Part shown: positions 30,248 through 53,152 of the stretch, in pieces
How positions within the stretch are numbered: the stretch's first letter is position 1
How the letters are laid out: each line of letters begins with the position of its first letter
NCBI GenBank assembly: GCA_964434585.1
Contig: CAYSVN010000001.1
Location: 1 to 57,078 of the forward strand
Direction: 5' to 3'
Origin: an uncultured Candidatus Peribacteria bacterium
GTDB lineage: Bacteria > Patescibacteriota > Gracilibacteria > Peribacterales > Peribacteraceae
DNA: 57,078 nucleotides
Position numbers and translations under genes: made by a program
The notes under the pieces: generated by a model
Told to the model about the DNA's origin: nothing
What the model saw: the letters and a program-made list of their open reading frames with translations, nothing else
The model's database searches: none

Positions 30248-30493
30248 ATGCGCACCAAGCGCGGAATTATTACATCGGCAAAAATGCAAGATACCGTTAC
30301 GGTAACTGTAGATACATCTAAATTGCATAAGCTTTATAAAAAACGTTATAAGCAAAGTAAAAACTTTCTAGCCGACAGTAAAGGGTTCGAAGGTCTTAAA
30401 GAAGGAGATGAAGTAGAAATTACAGAATGTAAACCACTTTCAAAAAGAAAACGATTCAAAGTAACAGAGCTTATTACCGTAGCTAACTCATGA
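30248..30493 (+). CDS. rpsQ: 30S ribosomal protein S17
   Basis: [16 protein letters not shown]...[18 protein letters not shown]. Confidence 0.93.
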
Positions 30494-30858
30494 TCCAATC
30501 TCAAACCATCCTTAATGTGGCAGATAATACAGGCGCGAAAAGCGTAATGTGTATCGTTGTACTTGGCGGCTCAAAACGTCGTTATGCTCGAGTTGGTGAT
30601 ATTATCACTGTAGCTGTTAAGTCAGCTGCTCCTCGTGGTAATGTTAAGCGTAAGTCAGTAGAAAAAGCAGTAGTAGTTCGTACAAAAACTGCCACTAAGC
30701 GTACTGACGGTAGTGCTATTCGTTTTGATGACAACGCATGCGTGCTAATTGACGCCTCTGGTCAACCAAAAGGCACTCGTGTTTTTGGACCAGTAGCTCG
30801 TGAATTACGTGGACGTGGTTACCAAAAAATTATTTCTCTTGCCCCTGATGTATTATGA
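30490..30858 (+). CDS. rplN: 50S ribosomal protein L14
   Basis: [17 protein letters not shown]. Confidence 0.97.
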
Positions 30859-31406
30859 AGATAAGAGCAGGCGATAGCGTCGTAGTTACCACTGGCAAAG
30901 ACAAAGGAAAGACAGGACAAATTTTAAAAGTATTACCTTTAAAAGACCGTGTAGTTGTAGCTGGTATTAATATGCGTAAGCGTCATATGCCTAAGCGTGC
31001 AAACCAAGCAGGTCAAATCATTACCTACGAAGCAAGCATTCATAGTAGTAATGTTATGATCATTGATCCTAAAACAAAAAAACCTTCACGTATTGGTACA
31101 AAAATTGATGACAAAGGTCGTCGTCAACGTATTGCGAAAAAGAGTGGAACAGTTCTTACAAACTCTAAGCCAAAAGCTGCAACAACAGAGGTAAAAAATG
31201 CAGATAGTGAAAGTAAAGAAAAGAAAGGAGCAGCAAAAGCAAAGACAACAACAGCAGCTAAAAAAACAACAACAAAAAAAACTGCACCAAAATCTAAAGA
31301 AAAAACTACCGCTGAGACATCTGCAAGTAAACCAGATGCAAAACCATTCTGGAAACGCATTGGTGGCTTTGGAAGCAGCGAAACTGACGAAGATTCCTCT
31401 GAATAA
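30855..31406 (+). CDS. rplX: 50S ribosomal protein L24 with a ~80-aa K/T/A-rich C-terminal extension
   Basis: [25 protein letters not shown] (KOW) followed by a low-complexity tail. Confidence 0.92.
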
Positions 31407-31408
31407 TC

Positions 31409-32113
31409 ATGCCAACTATTACCCCTCTACGCGATCGGCTTTCCACTGACATCTTAGCAGAGCTAAAGAAAAGTCTTGGTGAACGTAATATCAACGCCTA
31501 TCCAAAGGTAGAGAAGATTGTTATTGCTACAGGTATTAACAAAACAAAACAAGACAGCAAAGAACTCTACGATTATATCGTAGATTCAATTGAAAAAATT
31601 ACTGGACAACGTCCAGTACTTACAAAAGCAAAAAAAGCTGTTTCAAACTTTAAAACTCGCGAAGGAAACGTAGTGGGAGCAATGGTAACCCTACGTGGAG
31701 ATCGCATGATTGATTTTCTTGATCGCTTCATTCAATACGTTTTACCACGTGTACGCGACTTCCGCGGACTAAAATCGAAGTTAGACGGTCAAGGTAATTA
31801 CTCTATTGGGCTTACAGATCACACTGTATTTCCAGAGTTACCACCAGCAAATGCTAAGCAAATATTTGGATTACAAATCCAGATTGTAACCACTACCAAT
31901 AGCGACGTAGAGGCAAAAGCATTACTAGATGCAATGAATATGCCTTTCCGTAAAAAGAAAGAAGAAGTAAAAACAGAAACAGCTAAACCAGAACCTAAAA
32001 AAGAAGTTGCAGAAACTGTAGAGACTAAAGAGATTGCTTCATCTGAAGAAACTCCTGAAACTCCTGAGGTAACTGAAACTCCTGAAACTGATAATTCCGA
32101 TACCCCTTCTTAA
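31409..32113 (+). CDS. rplE: 50S ribosomal protein L5 with an acidic E/T/P-rich C-terminal extension
   Basis: [15 protein letters not shown]; tail ...[24 protein letters not shown]. Confidence 0.93.
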
Positions 32114-47187: not shown

Positions 47188-48672
47188 ATGGATGATCAAA
47201 ATTCACCATCGGAAAATAGCCTTGAAGGTAACCAAGACTTAAATAGACAGAGCGCTACTCTTCAAGATGGAAATGCAGCGGAGAATGTTTCGATAGACCT
47301 TACTCCATTAGCGCCACATTTAGAGCATATTCAACAAAGTCTTAAGGAGGTTATGGAAGGCGTTGGTTCAAGATTTAATGAGGTAAAAGAAGTTTGCAGC
47401 GGTATTCTTAATTATATTTCCAGTCGAGCAAAAGCGATTCTTACTGTAAAAGATAAGACTGGTGAAGAAGCTGTGGAAGTAAGAGAGCAGTTAGGTGAGT
47501 TGTTAACAGCAGATGCTATTAAAGCGGTAAATGCTAGCGTACGTGGCGCTTCTTGGGCTGTGGCAAACAAGCCACATTTTCTAGAAATACTAAAACGGAA
47601 CAATGCAAAATTATATGGAAAATATATGGCGTTGGGCGCTGGCGCATTTACATTTATTAACTGGCTTGTAACTCATAATGTAGACGAAAGGCTACAAAAA
47701 TTCGCACCAACATCATTGTTTCCAGCGATAGCATTAACCGTTGCCCCTTTTTATGTTAAAAAGTTTCGAGGGATGGACAAGTACCATGAAGAAAAAGAAA
47801 AATTTGCAACCATGATTACAAATATAGAAATGGATGTTCGTAATTTATCATTGGATGATAAAATACAACCAGAGGATGCTTATAAAATAATTCGAACCCT
47901 TGGCTTATTAGCATCATTTATTCATAACTACGAAGATAGATCTGGAGCATGTATTACAAAATATATGGATAAAATAGGCGAATTAGATACGTATTTTGCA
48001 GAACAATCTAAGGAGGTACAACAAATTGCTTTAGATATTTTTAGTGAAAATAAATTAGAGACAAAAAAAGTAAAATCAAAAAATGGTGAACAGGAAGAGG
48101 TAAAAATGATCATTCCAGAAGTGACTGATTATCAACTTGGGCAAATGTGGCGTAAATTATTAGCAATTCTAGAGGACCAGTGTCAAGAAGTTGCTTTAAG
48201 AAAAAACGCAAAAGGTAGCCAAAATCCAAATTGGATACCCACATTTTCAGAAGAGAAAGTTAACGATGTTTCTGTAACAGGACTTACGGAAACATTGCAA
48301 ATTGCAGAATTAAGAGCTTCCTGTATGAAGATTGAGTCACGCGTAAGAAATGTTATTACAAAAGCAGAAGAATACGCAATTTATGGTAGCTGGGCAACGT
48401 TTGTCTCGTCGTTATATGCTGCTACACACCCAGATCCAACCATTCAATATGGCGCCATGGCGTTACTAGGAGTTGTATCCTCTTACATACTAGCAGTTAA
48501 AACGGACAATGGCCTTTCTGGACAAGGAAAAGACGCAACGTTTAGCTCTTCAAGTTATCAATTTGGTCATAAAATGTTAGATGTATTTAATAAATCTGTT
48601 ATAGAGGTAGAGATTCATGCTAGAGAATTAGTAAGTAAAAGGCCTCCTTCGAATATTGTTGTAGATATATAA
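47188..48672 (+). CDS. Hypothetical membrane protein (~4 hydrophobic segments)
   Basis: ORF with MALGAGAFTFINWLV, LFPAIALTVAPFYV, YGSWATFVSSLYAA and ALLGVVSSYILAV. Confidence 0.55.
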   Translation: MDDQNSPSENSLEGNQDLNRQSATLQDGNAAENVSIDLTPLAPHLEHIQQSLKEVMEGVGSRFNEVKEVCSGILNYISSRAKAILTVKDKTGEEAVEVREQLGELLTADAIKAVNASVRGASWAVANKPHFLEILKRNNAKLYGKYMALGAGAFTFINWLVTHNVDERLQKFAPTSLFPAIALTVAPFYVKKFRGMDKYHEEKEKFATMITNIEMDVRNLSLDDKIQPEDAYKIIRTLGLLASFIHNYEDRSGACITKYMDKIGELDTYFAEQSKEVQQIALDIFSENKLETKKVKSKNGEQEEVKMIIPEVTDYQLGQMWRKLLAILEDQCQEVALRKNAKGSQNPNWIPTFSEEKVNDVSVTGLTETLQIAELRASCMKIESRVRNVITKAEEYAIYGSWATFVSSLYAATHPDPTIQYGAMALLGVVSSYILAVKTDNGLSGQGKDATFSSSSYQFGHKMLDVFNKSVIEVEIHARELVSKRPPSNIVVDI

Positions 48673-48813: not shown

Positions 48814-48888
48814 GGGTCAGTAGCTCAGTGGTAGAGCAGTAGGCTTTTAACCTATTGGCCGTGAGTTCGATCCTCACCTGACCCACCA
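48814..48888 (+). tRNA. tRNA-Lys (anticodon TTT), CCA encoded
   Basis: Acceptor GGGTCAG/CTGACCC, D arm GCTC-AGTGGTA-GAGC, anticodon arm GTAGG-CTTTTAA-CCTAT, T arm GTGAG-TTCGATC-CTCAC. Confidence 0.92.
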
Positions 48889-48984
48889 CCTTTAAATACA
48901 AAAACAGTAACACTTCACATATCACAGTTTTATGCTCTGGATAATATTTAAAGATAGCTATGTATGGTATAATAGTTAGATTTT

Positions 48985-50628
48985 GTGAACAAATTCTCAG
49001 CTTTTCTATCGGCTTTCTTGCTTGTAGCCCTATTAGGTGTAGGTGGTACCGTATTTGCACAAAGTAACTGGGACGCCACCTTAAAAGCTAGTACCGAGGC
49101 GTTTACCATTATTGATGACGCGGATAGCTTAAGTGATATCTACCTACAATTTGGTGAAAACGTAGCAGAAACATTAACGTTTAATTTAGCTAATGACCGT
49201 TTTGAATTTAGTAATGATATATACATAAATGGTAATATTGCTGCTACCGGTAGTTTATTTATTAGTAATGATGGTGTATCAAACGATGCTACTATTATTT
49301 TTGATGAGCTAACTTCAACGAACTTAAGTTATAACTTTGGTAATAATCGTTTTGAATTTAGTAACGATGTATATATAAATGGCGGCCTAGAGGCAGCAGG
49401 ATCTATTACCGGTACAACACTTGCAACAACTACTCTACCAAACTGTGAGACGTTAGAAACCAATAGCGGCGGCCAATTAACCTGTGGTGCCGGTACAGTA
49501 ATTGCTCAAACTGGTTCCTCTTTGGCCACTATTCAAGTACGGCGCAGTAGCGGTAGTGTCTTTACGCTAACAAACCAAGACCAATGGTATCAATTTCCAT
49601 TTACTATTATAGATAGCGAAAGTAATACAGATGTTATTGAACATAATACTACAACCGCTAGCCGTATTGATATTAAAGAAGATGGTTATTATTTCCTTTC
49701 TTACCGTGTAGACCACAATGCTAACGTTAACCATGAACTATGGGCACGTGTCACGCAAAACGGAATAGAAATTCCAGGGTCTTACACCCAAGGAAGAAAC
49801 TTTGGAGGCGAGTTTTCCCCCAATGTTATTAGCGTGGTTTCTTACCTAGAAAATGGTGATTATGTAGAGCTAGAAGTACAACGTAAAACAGTGTTAAATA
49901 TCCAAAATGACACTATTTTAACGGTAACAAAACTTGAAGGCGTTCGTGGGCCAGAAGGCCCGGCGGGAACAGGTGGTTTAACGCAAGCAGAAACAGATGC
50001 GCTTTATGTAAATACCGCCGGAGATACCATGACAGGCGCATTAATAAATACCGTTTCGGTAACTTCTGAATTTATTAATGTGGCCTCAGCGACGCCACCT
50101 ACTTGTAATGTAGCCAATTTTGGTAGGCAGTGGGTCGATAGCGATACGGGTATGTTATACGTTTGCGACCCAAGCCGTACTAAGTGGCTGACACCGGCTG
50201 ACCAAAGCATTTGGGGAGAGCAAAATGGAGCCCAGTGTGTAGCAGGTGATTCTATTGGTAGCGAAGGCGACTGTGTTATTGAGTATGGAAGCTCGGTTGG
50301 GGTAAACCAAGATACAGAAGATAATGCTATCTATTTTCCGCATCCAATAACTATTACTGGTTATGGTTTCTCTAACGATGATAACGACTGTAATACTGGT
50401 ACATTTAGCATTGAAACATGGACAAGTGGCGGCACAGCTACTGATGAACCATTAATATTTGAGGCAGATATTGCAACAGGCATTGGGAATGTAGACACTA
50501 GTCAATCTTCCAATCTTTCTATTGATTTAAGAGGGCAGCAGTATAGAACATTTGGTATTGATAATGATTGCGGCCAAACAATTGATGATTATAATATGAT
50601 TATCTATTATCGCTACCGACATGATTAA
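48985..50628 (+). CDS. Secreted paralog P1: RFEFSNDVYING repeat module x2, C1q/TNF-like jelly-roll, tail-fibre-like GDTMTG motif, Cys-containing C-terminal domain
   Basis: GTG start; signal peptide ...GGTVFAQS; IQVRRSSG...IDIKEDGYYFLSYRV...LENGDYVELEV has C1q-like spacing; GPEGPAGTGG; LYVNTAGDTMTGAL. Confidence 0.7.
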   Translation: MNKFSAFLSAFLLVALLGVGGTVFAQSNWDATLKASTEAFTIIDDADSLSDIYLQFGENVAETLTFNLANDRFEFSNDIYINGNIAATGSLFISNDGVSNDATIIFDELTSTNLSYNFGNNRFEFSNDVYINGGLEAAGSITGTTLATTTLPNCETLETNSGGQLTCGAGTVIAQTGSSLATIQVRRSSGSVFTLTNQDQWYQFPFTIIDSESNTDVIEHNTTTASRIDIKEDGYYFLSYRVDHNANVNHELWARVTQNGIEIPGSYTQGRNFGGEFSPNVISVVSYLENGDYVELEVQRKTVLNIQNDTILTVTKLEGVRGPEGPAGTGGLTQAETDALYVNTAGDTMTGALINTVSVTSEFINVASATPPTCNVANFGRQWVDSDTGMLYVCDPSRTKWLTPADQSIWGEQNGAQCVAGDSIGSEGDCVIEYGSSVGVNQDTEDNAIYFPHPITITGYGFSNDDNDCNTGTFSIETWTSGGTATDEPLIFEADIATGIGNVDTSQSSNLSIDLRGQQYRTFGIDNDCGQTIDDYNMIIYYRYRHD

Positions 50629-50693
50629 AACACAATAAACATACAATGGAAACTAGTTAATATTGTTAAAAAATGGTACAATGGTTAGATCTT

Positions 50694-52310
50694 GTGAACA
50701 AATTCTCAGCTTTCCTATCGGCTTTTGTAATAGTAGAATTATGTAGTGTAGTGCATACCGTATTTGCACAAAGCAACTGGGACGCCACCTTAAAAGCTAG
50801 TACCGAGGCGTTTACTATTATTGATGATTCCGATACACTTAGCGATATTTACTTACAATTTGGTGAAAGCGTAGCAGAAACGTTAACATTCCACCGTACG
50901 AATGATTGGTTTGAATTTAGTAACGATGTTTATATACAAGGAGAGTTAACTACTTCCGGCGTAACAATCTTGCCATTACCAGACTGTGCAAACTTAGTTA
51001 CCAATGGCTCTGGTAGTATTATTTGTGGCAATACAACACAAATAACATTTACCGGTAGCGACTTAGCCGCTGTACAAGTACGTCGAGACACAAATTTAAA
51101 TTTGGCATTAGCTAGTACATGGCTTGATATCACCTTTAATAATACCGATATTGAAAGTAACGTTGCAGCGTTAGAGCACAATGACGTTAATACAGAGATT
51201 ATTGATATCAAACAAGATGGGTACTATATGATTTCGTACCATGTTACGTCGTCTGGAGGTTCTACAACTGGTGTCCAACAGCACGATCTATCAGTCCGAG
51301 TGCTAAAGAATAATGCAGATGTTTTAGAGGGATCTTTAACACGTTCTGCTGAATTTGTGCTGGAATATATTCCAAATACTATTAGTATTTTGGCATTCTT
51401 GCAAAAAGATGATGAAATTAAGCTGCAAGCGCTGCGTGAACTTAACTCACCAAATGAGATTATTGATGAAACAGTCTTTACAATTGTAAGCTTGGAAAGT
51501 GGTGGTTCTAGTGGTTCGTTGCTTCAAGTAGATGCTGATGATTTGTATGTTAATACCACTGGTGATACGATGACAGGAACATTAAATATTGCTAATGGTG
51601 GAGAATTAAATGTAGAAGGTAGTATTACGACCGATTCCAATTTGGGGTTAAATAGCGATGGGGCCGCTGTTGATGTCGGCATACGGTTTGGTGGTCCAGC
51701 AACACAATCACTTGTGTATGCAATAGGAAACACGCGGTTTGAATTTAGTGATGATGTGTATGTAAATGGTAACGCAGCAGTCACAGAAAATTTATTTATT
51801 AACGTTGATGATACTGCCGCAGATGCTAGTATTTCATTTGGGGGAACTACTCCACAAAGCCTATTATACTCTGATGGAAACACTCGGTTTGAATTAAGTG
51901 ATGATACCCAAATTGATGGAGAATTAGGTGTGACAGAAAATATCAACAGTCGCTGTGGAGCCCATGATAGCTTTAGTTTTGAACGTGGTGGTGTAAGCTC
52001 TAATAATTCCTGGGCAGTTGGTAATGGGCAAACACCTTGGGGTGCACCAATGGCTTGTAGCGGAGAAGTAACAGCAATGTCCGCGGTTTGTACGGGCTCA
52101 ATTGGAACCTCGCTCACTGCAGTGCTGCGTAAGAATAACGTTCCAACAACTTGTGTGGTTAATATTGCAGCGACAGTTGGTGATGCAACCTCGGTTGATT
52201 GCAATGAAACATTTGCTGTCGATGATGTATTAGGAATCTATGCTGGAACAGAAACAGGTGCTTGGACAGAATGTGTTGGTACATTTTGGACAAGGTATGA
52301 TATTCAATAG
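50694..52310 (+). CDS. Secreted paralog P2 (start moved to GTG 50694): repeat module, C1q/TNF-like domain, GDTMTG motif, two further repeat modules, Cys-rich C-terminus
   Basis: The 5' ~150 nt are nearly identical to P1. VQVRRDTN...IDIKQDGYYMISYHV; LYVNTTGDTMTGTL; NTRFEFSDDVYVNG and NTRFELSDDTQIDG. Confidence 0.7.
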   Translation: MNKFSAFLSAFVIVELCSVVHTVFAQSNWDATLKASTEAFTIIDDSDTLSDIYLQFGESVAETLTFHRTNDWFEFSNDVYIQGELTTSGVTILPLPDCANLVTNGSGSIICGNTTQITFTGSDLAAVQVRRDTNLNLALASTWLDITFNNTDIESNVAALEHNDVNTEIIDIKQDGYYMISYHVTSSGGSTTGVQQHDLSVRVLKNNADVLEGSLTRSAEFVLEYIPNTISILAFLQKDDEIKLQALRELNSPNEIIDETVFTIVSLESGGSSGSLLQVDADDLYVNTTGDTMTGTLNIANGGELNVEGSITTDSNLGLNSDGAAVDVGIRFGGPATQSLVYAIGNTRFEFSDDVYVNGNAAVTENLFINVDDTAADASISFGGTTPQSLLYSDGNTRFELSDDTQIDGELGVTENINSRCGAHDSFSFERGGVSSNNSWAVGNGQTPWGAPMACSGEVTAMSAVCTGSIGTSLTAVLRKNNVPTTCVVNIAATVGDATSVDCNETFAVDDVLGIYAGTETGAWTECVGTFWTRYDIQ

Positions 52311-52363
52311 ATAGATAAAAAATAGTAAAATTATAAAAAATATGGTATAATAATATAATAATC

Positions 52364-53152
52364 ATGAGAAAATCATTGTTATTATTGGCTGTTTTACTAA
52401 TACCATTAATTAGTGGTATGCATACTGTTGTTGCCAGTAGTTGGAACCCTACGTTAAAAGTAAGCACAGAGCCTTTTACAATTATAGATGATAGTGCTGG
52501 ATTACTAGAAGATATTTACTTACAATTTGGTGATACATTAGCAGAAACATTAATGTTTAACCGTGCTAACAATAGGTTTGAATTTAGTGATGATGTATAT
52601 GTAAATGGTGATATTGAAGCCGCTGGAGTTGTCACAGCATCACAGGCGACATTAACAGGATTGGTAAATTGTTCAAAGTTAAAAACAAACACTTTAGGGC
52701 AAGTCACTTGTAATACCGATCCTTCTATTTTGCATGTTGACACAAGTTCTATTGTAACAACTGGAGCAAACTGGATAACAGCATATTCTGTAGTTATTCC
52801 CGGTGGAACAATTGGTGTGGGCAATGCACTTGATATTGATGTATGGGCAGATAGAACGAGTGGTACCAGCTCAGCAGCATTTAGGGTGCTATATGGTGGA
52901 TCACAAATTGTCGCAATGGGAAATAACGGTAATGACCCAGCCCGTATCGATGTCATGATTAAAGGTGATGGAACTACAAGTGCGCAAAAAGGATTTATGG
53001 ACCACAGTAATTCGGGTAATGGTGGTACAAACCGTGGTAATGTTGCTATTGATTCTACGGTAGACCAAACATTACAAATACAAATTAACCCCAATGTTGA
53101 TACAAACAATTGGACATTTGAATATTTAAGTATTGAAGTTCTAGAGCCGTAA
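52364..53152 (+). CDS. Secreted paralog P3 (short): one repeat module plus a beta-rich C-terminal domain
   Basis: Signal peptide LLAVLLIPLISGMHTVVASS; shared SWNPTLKVSTEPFTIIDD...IYLQFGDTLAETLMFNRANNRFEFSDDVYVNGD. Confidence 0.65.
   Translation: MRKSLLLLAVLLIPLISGMHTVVASSWNPTLKVSTEPFTIIDDSAGLLEDIYLQFGDTLAETLMFNRANNRFEFSDDVYVNGDIEAAGVVTASQATLTGLVNCSKLKTNTLGQVTCNTDPSILHVDTSSIVTTGANWITAYSVVIPGGTIGVGNALDIDVWADRTSGTSSAAFRVLYGGSQIVAMGNNGNDPARIDVMIKGDGTTSAQKGFMDHSNSGNGGTNRGNVAIDSTVDQTLQIQINPNVDTNNWTFEYLSIEVLEP

Follow-up and report, generated by a model that had tools for sequence, protein, structure and literature searches.

Patchy gene conversion as the probable source of the near-identical 5′ ends of two tandem fibre-type genes in a Candidatus Peribacteria genome

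Introduction

Why do two neighboring genes agree almost base for base at their 5′ ends and differ so strongly farther on? The question is raised by P1 and P2, the first two of three tandem paralogs (P1, P2 and P3) for predicted surface proteins on a 57,078-nucleotide (nt) stretch of DNA from an uncultured Candidatus Peribacteria bacterium (contig CAYSVN010000001.1, positions 1 to 57,078, of assembly GCA_964434585.1), here called the window. The source is a metagenome-assembled genome of 1.18 Mb in 92 contigs, about 96% complete. Tiny genomes are typical of such bacteria, and a life attached to other cells is probable. The likely organs of contact are their surface fibres, about which almost nothing is known. 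An initial annotation had read the shared 5′ block as a sign of ongoing gene conversion or recombination, able to swap variable 3′ cassettes behind a constant expression and export module in the manner of antigenic variation. We find that gene conversion, acting in short patches, is the probable source of the likeness, and that programmed variation is a highly improbable one.

Results

The likeness of P1 and P2 is confined to short patches

Aligned without gaps, P1 and P2 are 81% identical over 264 nt (48964-49227 vs 50673-50936), and this identity is distributed very unevenly. In sliding 30-nt windows it reaches 0.9-1.0 at 48965-49016 and 49047-49118, sinks to 0.57-0.67 at 49017-49046, ranges from 0.6 to 0.9 up to about 49230 and lies at 0.3-0.4 beyond. 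The near base-for-base agreement described in the initial annotation is borne out, both of the strings that it quoted being present with 3 mismatches in 37 nt (TGGTATAATAGTTAGATTTTGTGAACAAATTCTCAGC at 48965 vs TGGTACAATGGTTAGATCTTGTGAACAAATTCTCAGC at 50674) and 2 mismatches in 72. We distinguish two patches, an island within the signal peptide and two downstream blocks (Table 1). The final 16 nt of patch i group only with P2. Patch ii (49047-49118 vs 50756-50827) holds an exact run of 41 nt (49066-49106), and both of its mismatches are synonymous. The last sites that back a grouping of P1 with P2 are found at 49158-49162, within block iii.

The other parts of that description fared well, with one exception. 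The hydrophobic core (h-region) of the signal peptide is diverged, as are the later codons: similarity falls to background after about 49170, and the middle domains of P1 and P2 are only ~50% identical in nucleotides. P3 is more distant from both throughout (69-71% in the main patch). A shared 5′ untranslated region, in contrast, hardly exists, since only 11 nt separate the -10 hexamer from the GTG start codon.

Silent sites and a related locus favor conversion over selection

A related locus was found via a protein collection on a 7.6-kb contig of a related metagenome organism (L044); its flanking genes match the window with about 78% identity over 5.3 kb. It carries the same tRNA-Lys, then a single 540-amino-acid (aa) gene, Q1, then Q3, the ortholog of P3. 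Q1 is the positional ortholog of P1, as seen in the upstream region (31/40 identical) and in the middle domain (76% in nucleotides).

The proportion of synonymous sites that differ between P1 and P2 (pS, Nei-Gojobori) stands at 0.13 in codons 1-10 and 0.20 in codons 22-45, but at 0.70 in codons 11-20 and 0.68 in codons 46-88. In counts, the patches have 4 synonymous differences at ~22 sites and the remainder of the first 88 codons has 23 at ~34 sites (Fisher p=0.0004), while the ortholog-level pS between window and L044 is 0.58-0.67 (glycosyltransferase, P1-Q1 middle domain, P2-Q1 tail). Since the patches are alike at silent sites too, constraint on the protein explains their missing replacements only. 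P1 shares 97% of patch ii with its paralog P2 and only 74% with its ortholog Q1. The order is reversed farther on, with 72% for P1-Q1 vs 65% for P1-P2 in block iv and 76% vs 50% in the middle domain. Two derived indels in patch ii, a gain of ACA and a loss of 3 nt, are common to P1 and P2 only and are found in none of Q1, P3 and Q3.

The nearest relative of P1 also changes along the gene. Nineteen informative sites group P1 with P2, almost all of them at 48975-49162; the two alternative groupings have 7 each and dominate after 49170. P2 comes out as the nearest neighbor of P1 in 100% of bootstrap replicates over 49047-49170 but in only 2.8% over 49171-49248. A permutation of polymorphic sites modeled on GENECONV gave p=0.019 for P1-P2 and p>0.27 for each of the other five pairs (P1-Q1, P2-Q1, P3-Q3, P1-P3 and P2-P3). 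The locus accordingly displays three properties by which gene conversion is recognized: a paralogous segment is more alike within a genome than its ortholog is between genomes, the phylogenetic signal is incongruent along the gene with significant clustering of matches, and low synonymous divergence is confined to the tract. The genome contains recA.

Part of the block has another explanation. Q1 is nearly as conserved (32/36) as P1 and P2 are with each other (33/36) over the initial 36 nt, which run from -10 box to codon 5; this probably reflects constraint on the promoter or on initiation there and not recent conversion. RNA structure gave no such sign, the first 147 nt of P1, P2 and P3 folding no better than shuffled sequence (z = 0.2-0.4). 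Purifying selection, the explanation that would undo the conversion claim, accordingly holds for these first 36 nt in part, and selection at the protein level alone does not account for the rest. Low synonymous divergence, paralogs more alike than orthologs, shared derived indels and the switch of nearest relative all uphold a claim of gene conversion or recombination.

A P1-head/P2-tail hybrid in the related lineage

The head and the C1q-like middle of Q1 track P1 (about 85% aa identity) up to ...KLEGVRGPAGTGGL, and from LQADADDLYVN... to the stop codon Q1 tracks P2 (about 90% aa; 79% nt). The crossover falls just before a conserved LYVNTxGDTMTG linker. Judged by its sequence, Q1 is a hybrid with the head of P1 and the tail of P2, and heads and tails of these genes have evidently been recombined over evolutionary time; recombination between P1-type and P2-type genes does occur. 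Two histories are possible for Q1: the L044 lineage may have lost the interval between the linkers, or the window lineage may have gained it. The idea of swappable 3′ cassettes survives to the extent that heads and tails have been recombined as modules, and fails in that the exchange took place at the linker and not behind a constant 5′ block.

Q1 and Q3 are not homogenized with each other (47/69 in patch ii). As an observation apart, P3 and Q3 (52364-53152 vs 2979-3764 of L044) form the most conserved stretch of the two loci, with 89% nucleotide identity and a pS of 0.33, whereas the flanking housekeeping genes show 70-80% and 0.58-0.67. This suggests either unusually strong constraint that includes silent sites or a recent exchange of the P3 gene between lineages. 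Close relatives of the locus were found in metagenome contigs neither by an exact 41-mer scan nor by a protein-seeded scan, and no close P3 ortholog was found in 200 genomes of the GTDB family; L044, from the protein collection, is the sole close relative.

A modular family of fibre-type proteins

P1 consists, in order, of a signal peptide, an N-module, an extra half-module repeat, a C1q/TNF-like domain, a short collagen-like GPEGPAG stretch, a LYVNTAGDTMTG linker and a unique tail. In P2 the signal peptide, N-module and C1q/TNF-like domain are followed by a LYVNTTGDTMTG linker, two more module repeats and a cysteine-containing C-terminal domain of ~125 aa. The half-module repeat of P1 is mirrored in its nucleotides, 49174-49232 and 49324-49382 being 81% identical. 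All three signal peptides are of the Sec type, ending in ...VFA/Q or ...VVA/S (the slash marks the end), and lead into an N-module of ~65 aa with the consensus SNWxxTLKxSTExFTIIDD...LQFG...ETLTF...FEFSxDVYxNG. A profile built from it hits 642 representative proteins; for 110 of the 150 top-ranked ones (72-4019 aa) the best match begins within the first 60 residues. The module is present in 31 of 61 related genomes, often as tandem arrays, and recurs as an internal repeat. One such repeat in P2 (51736-51770) agrees with the N-module of P3 (52575-52609) at 34/35 nt over FEFSDDVYVNG, and the orthologs are nearly as alike there (31-33 of 34). We considered this match as a further micro-conversion tract, but its likeness does not clearly exceed that of the orthologs.

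The assignment of the middle domain rests on its fold. In the AlphaFold model of P2, residues ~120-270 have a predicted local distance difference test (pLDDT) score of 74-93, and the C-terminal domain is also modeled with confidence. Foldseek matched the middle domain, as a jelly-roll, to C1QL3, C1q, BclA and BxpB (E about 1e-7; template modeling score, TMt, 0.75-0.81), with further matches to ExsFA and to the spike knob of phage phi812. By sequence the C1q/TNF-like affiliation stayed below threshold, with 16 bits for PF18573 (E=0.01) against a cut-off of 38 bits and E=0.21 for C1QL2 with phmmer. Sequence searches of Pfam, PHROGs and PDB returned nothing significant, and Pfam has no family for the N-module or the tails.

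The C-terminal domain of P2 follows many different heads, and the tail of P1 recurs in one unrelated protein of 356 aa. The former (51950-52310) has the pattern ...ERGxVxSNxSWAxGNGQTPWG...TECVGTFWxxYD with conserved cysteines and no Pfam family; in two proteins (P0014 and P0015) a domain of this type is found near the N-terminus. On contig C2 of the same genome a fourth, distant member occupies 30321-31634, a frame of 437 codons open from stop to stop in which the module is internal and the ATG overlaps a TATAAT box. The modeled fold and the module order suggest that P1-P3 are secreted, probably trimeric surface fibres with a constant head for export and anchoring and variable distal parts, which may serve adhesion at the cell surface.

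The locus, its promoters and three assemblies

P1, P2 and P3 lie on the + strand, each with its own TGGTA(T/C)AAT box and start codon (Table 1). We found no Shine-Dalgarno sequence before any of the three and no terminator-like site between them. The motif TGNTAYAAT also occurs just 5′ of starts elsewhere in the window, and the -10 hexamers of most other window genes lie ~6-9 nt before the start codon, so that the mRNAs of this genome seem to be leaderless or to have very short leaders. All five genes of the family (48965-48987, 50674-50696 and 52343-52366 in the window; near 1282 and 2958 in L044) have their box 11-12 nt 5′ of the start codon; a leader of ~5 nt may set the fibre genes apart in an otherwise leaderless genome, if the boxes act as the promoters that they resemble. 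The start codon is GTG in P1 and P2 and ATG at the equivalent position of Q1.

Table 1. Coordinates of the gene cluster, its repeated 5′ segments and the Q1 crossover zones in the window
Feature	Position	Strand	Remarks
tRNA-Lys(UUU)	48814..48888	+	Directly 5′ of the gene cluster; ARAGORN; 98.8% identical in L044 (blastn)
Upstream of -10 box	48925-48964		P1-P2 17/40, no similarity
P1 extended -10 box TGGTATAAT	48965..48973	+	11 nt before GTG; very short leader; predicted from sequence
Patch i, P1 copy	48965..49016	+	-10 box to codon 10; 48/52 identical to P2 50674-50725
P1	48985..50628	+	547 aa; from the list of open reading frames (ORFs); GTG start backed by Q1 ATG at the same position
Signal-peptide h-region	49017..49046	+	Island, apparently unconverted; P1-P2 15/30
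Patch ii, P1 copy	49047..49118	+	Codons 22-45; 70/72 identical to P2, 53/72 to Q1
Block iii	49119..49170	+	Apparently older homogenized stretch; P1-P2 41/52 vs P1-Q1 33/52
Block iv	49171-49248		P1-P2 51/78
P1-specific 49-aa repeat of second half of N-module	49255..49401	+	Absent from Q1 and P2; protein alignment
Crossover zone, P1 side	49966..49990	+	Q1 matches P1 up to ...GGAACAGGTGGTTTA
P2 extended -10 box TGGTACAAT	50674..50682	+	11 nt before GTG; inside the 44-nt P1-P2 spacer; predicted from sequence
Patch i, P2 copy	50674..50725	+	
P2	50694..52310	+	538 aa from GTG; ORF opens at ATG 50673
Patch ii, P2 copy	50756..50827	+	
Crossover zone, P2 side	51510..51531	+	Q1 matches P2 from ...CTTCAAGTAGATGC onward
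P3 extended -10 box TGGTATAAT	12 nt upstream of P3 start	+	Predicted from sequence
P3	52343..53152 (coding sequence 52364-53152)	+	262 aa; third, older paralog; outgroup; ortholog Q3 in L044

Two further assemblies overlap the cluster and are collinear with the window. An independent ENA assembly (L043) is 99.95% identical over 8655 nt, with 4 differences, and a Joint Genome Institute (JGI) contig (L067) is 100% identical over 50740-52643. All four differences from L043 (49740, 49767, 49836 and 50737) fall in P1 or P2, which has a chance probability of about 0.02. The one at 50737 turns an odd glutamate in the signal-peptide core of P2 into alanine (GAA to GCA); with the JGI contig starting only 3 nt beyond it, both alleles may coexist in that sample. 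We considered a micro-conversion here, as the change makes P2 more like P1; the change is isolated, however, and a point mutation is preferred.

Two observations concern the flank of the cluster. The protein of 494 aa encoded 5′ of tRNA-Lys (47188-48672) has no family match and is only ~27% identical to its L044 counterpart, whereas the genes neighboring it show 75-90% nucleotide identity to L044; a very fast-evolving gene thus adjoins the fibre cluster. In L044, ~160 additional nt (1058-1215) that the window lacks separate tRNA-Lys from the promoter region of Q1.

Discussion

We propose, with a probability of roughly 0.65, that the near-identical 5′ ends of P1 and P2 are due to patchy gene conversion between tandem paralogs rather than to protein-level selection alone. 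P1, P2 and P3 are tandem paralogs assembled from shuffled modules; P1 and P2, as direct-repeat copies, would have undergone short conversion events of the RecA type (with the dependence on RecA presumed) after their lineage had split from the closest sequenced relative. The most recent and main tract would be 49047-49118, accompanied by a second small one at about 49001-49016 and by an older one reaching to about 49162, and the h-region between the tracts would have been left unconverted. More than one event is likely, given the unconverted h-region and a block iii that is older than patch ii. The exact run of 41 nt could serve as a substrate for recombination. Selection would act alongside, on the N-module at the level of the protein and on the -10 box, short leader and first codons at the level of the nucleotides, and the family would also recombine at its conserved linker motif to give head/tail hybrids such as Q1.

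Several points weigh against this proposal. Polarity and timing rest on one outgroup, the single related lineage of L044. The tracts are short (16-72 nt), and all counts are small as a result. A diverged island of 30 nt between near-identical patches calls for patchy mismatch repair or else for two separate events. Because Q1 conserves the first 36 nt about equally well, part of the block is constraint, and an element under selection at the nucleotide level in this lineage only is a possible source of the remainder. The three assemblies are collinear, with no recombinant form among them.

It is conceivable, if unlikely, that one unequal crossover or partial duplication grafted the 5′ end of one gene onto the other, starting with the -10 box and reaching codon ~60, after the split from L044, and that mutation then made the mosaic. 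The grouping of P1 with P2 does span one contiguous region (48975-49162), and Q1 demonstrates that such grafts happen in the family. Yet the h-region has 15 mismatches in 30 nt vs 6 in 124 nt of its flanks, a contrast that mutation after a single graft cannot give, and patch ii (97% identity) is clearly younger than block iii (79%, with saturated pS), so that at least two events of different age are implied. Selection on the nucleotides themselves would keep the patches as a DNA or RNA element for co-regulation, for example a site for a regulator or small RNA or for near-leaderless translation initiation. Such an element fits the conservation of the segment from -10 box to codon 5 in Q1, the conserved synonymous sites of the patches and a genome whose mRNAs have short leaders or none, so that their early codons can matter. 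We regard it as quite unlikely, though, for the patches as a whole: patch ii is not kept at the nucleotide level in Q1 (53/72; pS 0.61) or in P3 and Q3, thermodynamic folding gave no sign of RNA structure (z about 0; Rfam was not searched), and shared derived indels are a signal of ancestry and not of constraint. Comparable nucleotide blocks were also absent from 20 tandem arrays of the family in related genomes, where self-comparison found intragenic repeats only and no homogenized 5′ blocks. Since Q1 and Q3 lack homogenization as well, the P1/P2 block appears to be a local, lineage-specific trait and not a designed feature of the family. That reads from the two paralogs were mixed into one consensus is scarcely credible. 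The genome is a metagenome assembly in 92 contigs, and the JGI contig ends inside the 5′ region of P2, at 50740. Exact runs of at most 41 nt, however, are below the read and final k-mer lengths, and the two independent assemblies agree with the window in the patches that they cover; with the sequence reproduced in both, an assembly artefact is not the explanation.

Patchy conversion between P1 and P2 is one matter and programmed antigenic or phase variation, in which the 5′ block would be a recombination site that moves variable bodies at high frequency behind an expression and export module, is another. Some features invite this reading: direct repeats with an exact run of 41 nt, 1709 bp apart, all four single-nucleotide polymorphisms between two assemblies within P1 or P2, surface proteins in a probable episymbiont and a hybrid gene in a relative. 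We nevertheless hold it to be highly improbable. Searches of the whole 1.18 Mb with tblastn and blastn, which followed up the suggestion that silent 3′ cassettes might exist, recovered with P1, P2 and P3 as queries only these three genes and one weak full-length paralog on contig C2, and no cassette, silent or partial, of either the P1 or the P2 body. Every copy comes with a separate -10 box and start codon, with no single expression site among them. With all three genes in the same direction, inversion switching is impossible, and only deletion or duplication is permitted. The only tyrosine recombinase of the genome is on contig C18, away from the locus, and no reverse transcriptase was found in the genome in the form of an RVT_1 match. 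The arrangement is the same in three assemblies and the block absent from the 20 family arrays, and the one module swap that is known took place at the LYVNT linker, not at the homogenized 5′ block. The antigenic-variation part of the initial annotation is accordingly not sustained. We also considered a diversity-generating retroelement and rejected it, in view of the missing RVT_1 match and of mismatches that are not adenine-specific; in the first 45 codons, outside the signal-peptide core, they are T/C or A/G and, where they fall in codons, synonymous. A related and very unlikely, though less remote, idea is that the 41-nt direct repeats are a hot spot in the living population, where reversible deletion or duplication of the 1709-bp unit, or repeated conversion, changes the body of the fibre. 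If so, an ultra-small episymbiotic bacterium would possess a simple surface-variation device that needs RecA only.

Segmental concerted evolution has been described for the adhesin paralogs of Helicobacter pylori (babA/babB/babC, sabA/sabB and homA/homB), with chimeras such as BabB/A; conversion was seen directly in vitro and in vivo and alters the adhesion phenotype, and the loci are dispersed with the homogenized segment at the 3′ end (PMC3960876). By its pattern, this appears to be the closest analogue of P1 and P2. In both cases one segment of paralogous surface-protein genes is homogenized within a genome while others are diverged, for P1 and P2 probably likewise by conversion of a RecA type, and chimeric genes exist. 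Unlike the H. pylori genes, P1 and P2 are in tandem, their tract is 5′ and very short, their proteins are unrelated to the adhesins, and the pair is known from assembled sequence alone.

Two other systems offer partial parallels. The variable lipoproteins of Mycoplasma (vsp, vlp, vpma and vsa) are switched either through promoter slippage or through site-specific inversion by a dedicated recombinase, and have inverted genes and silent copies. P1-P3 share with them the clustering of surface-protein genes whose divergent bodies follow a highly conserved 5′ end of promoter or leader and signal peptide; unlike them, they are all on the + strand, without silent copies and without a recombinase nearby. 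Phage tail fibres and the spore fibres BclA and ExsF likewise have a conserved N-terminal attachment part, variable distal domains and a collagen-like stretch. The likeness to P1-P3 includes a tail-fibre-type xGDTMTGxL motif, the C1q/TNF jelly-roll and mosaicism with crossover at conserved linkers. P1-P3 differ in that they are encoded on the chromosome of a bacterium with a small genome and begin with Sec-type signal peptides; phage genes are absent from their neighborhood, and they gave no PHROG hits.

What the locus records is ordinary recombinational shuffling of a surface-protein family, and no new mechanism is revealed. A literature search on the surface proteins of this lineage found nothing relevant. 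Because the process is well known from pathogens, the case is of value as a record of it in this lineage and as a definition of the modules that make up an uncharacterized family with hundreds of members. If our interpretation is correct, the locus would be a clean, datable example of how such a fibre family evolves, in which short conversion tracts keep the export and anchoring ends alike and recombination at the linker swaps heads and tails between neighboring genes.

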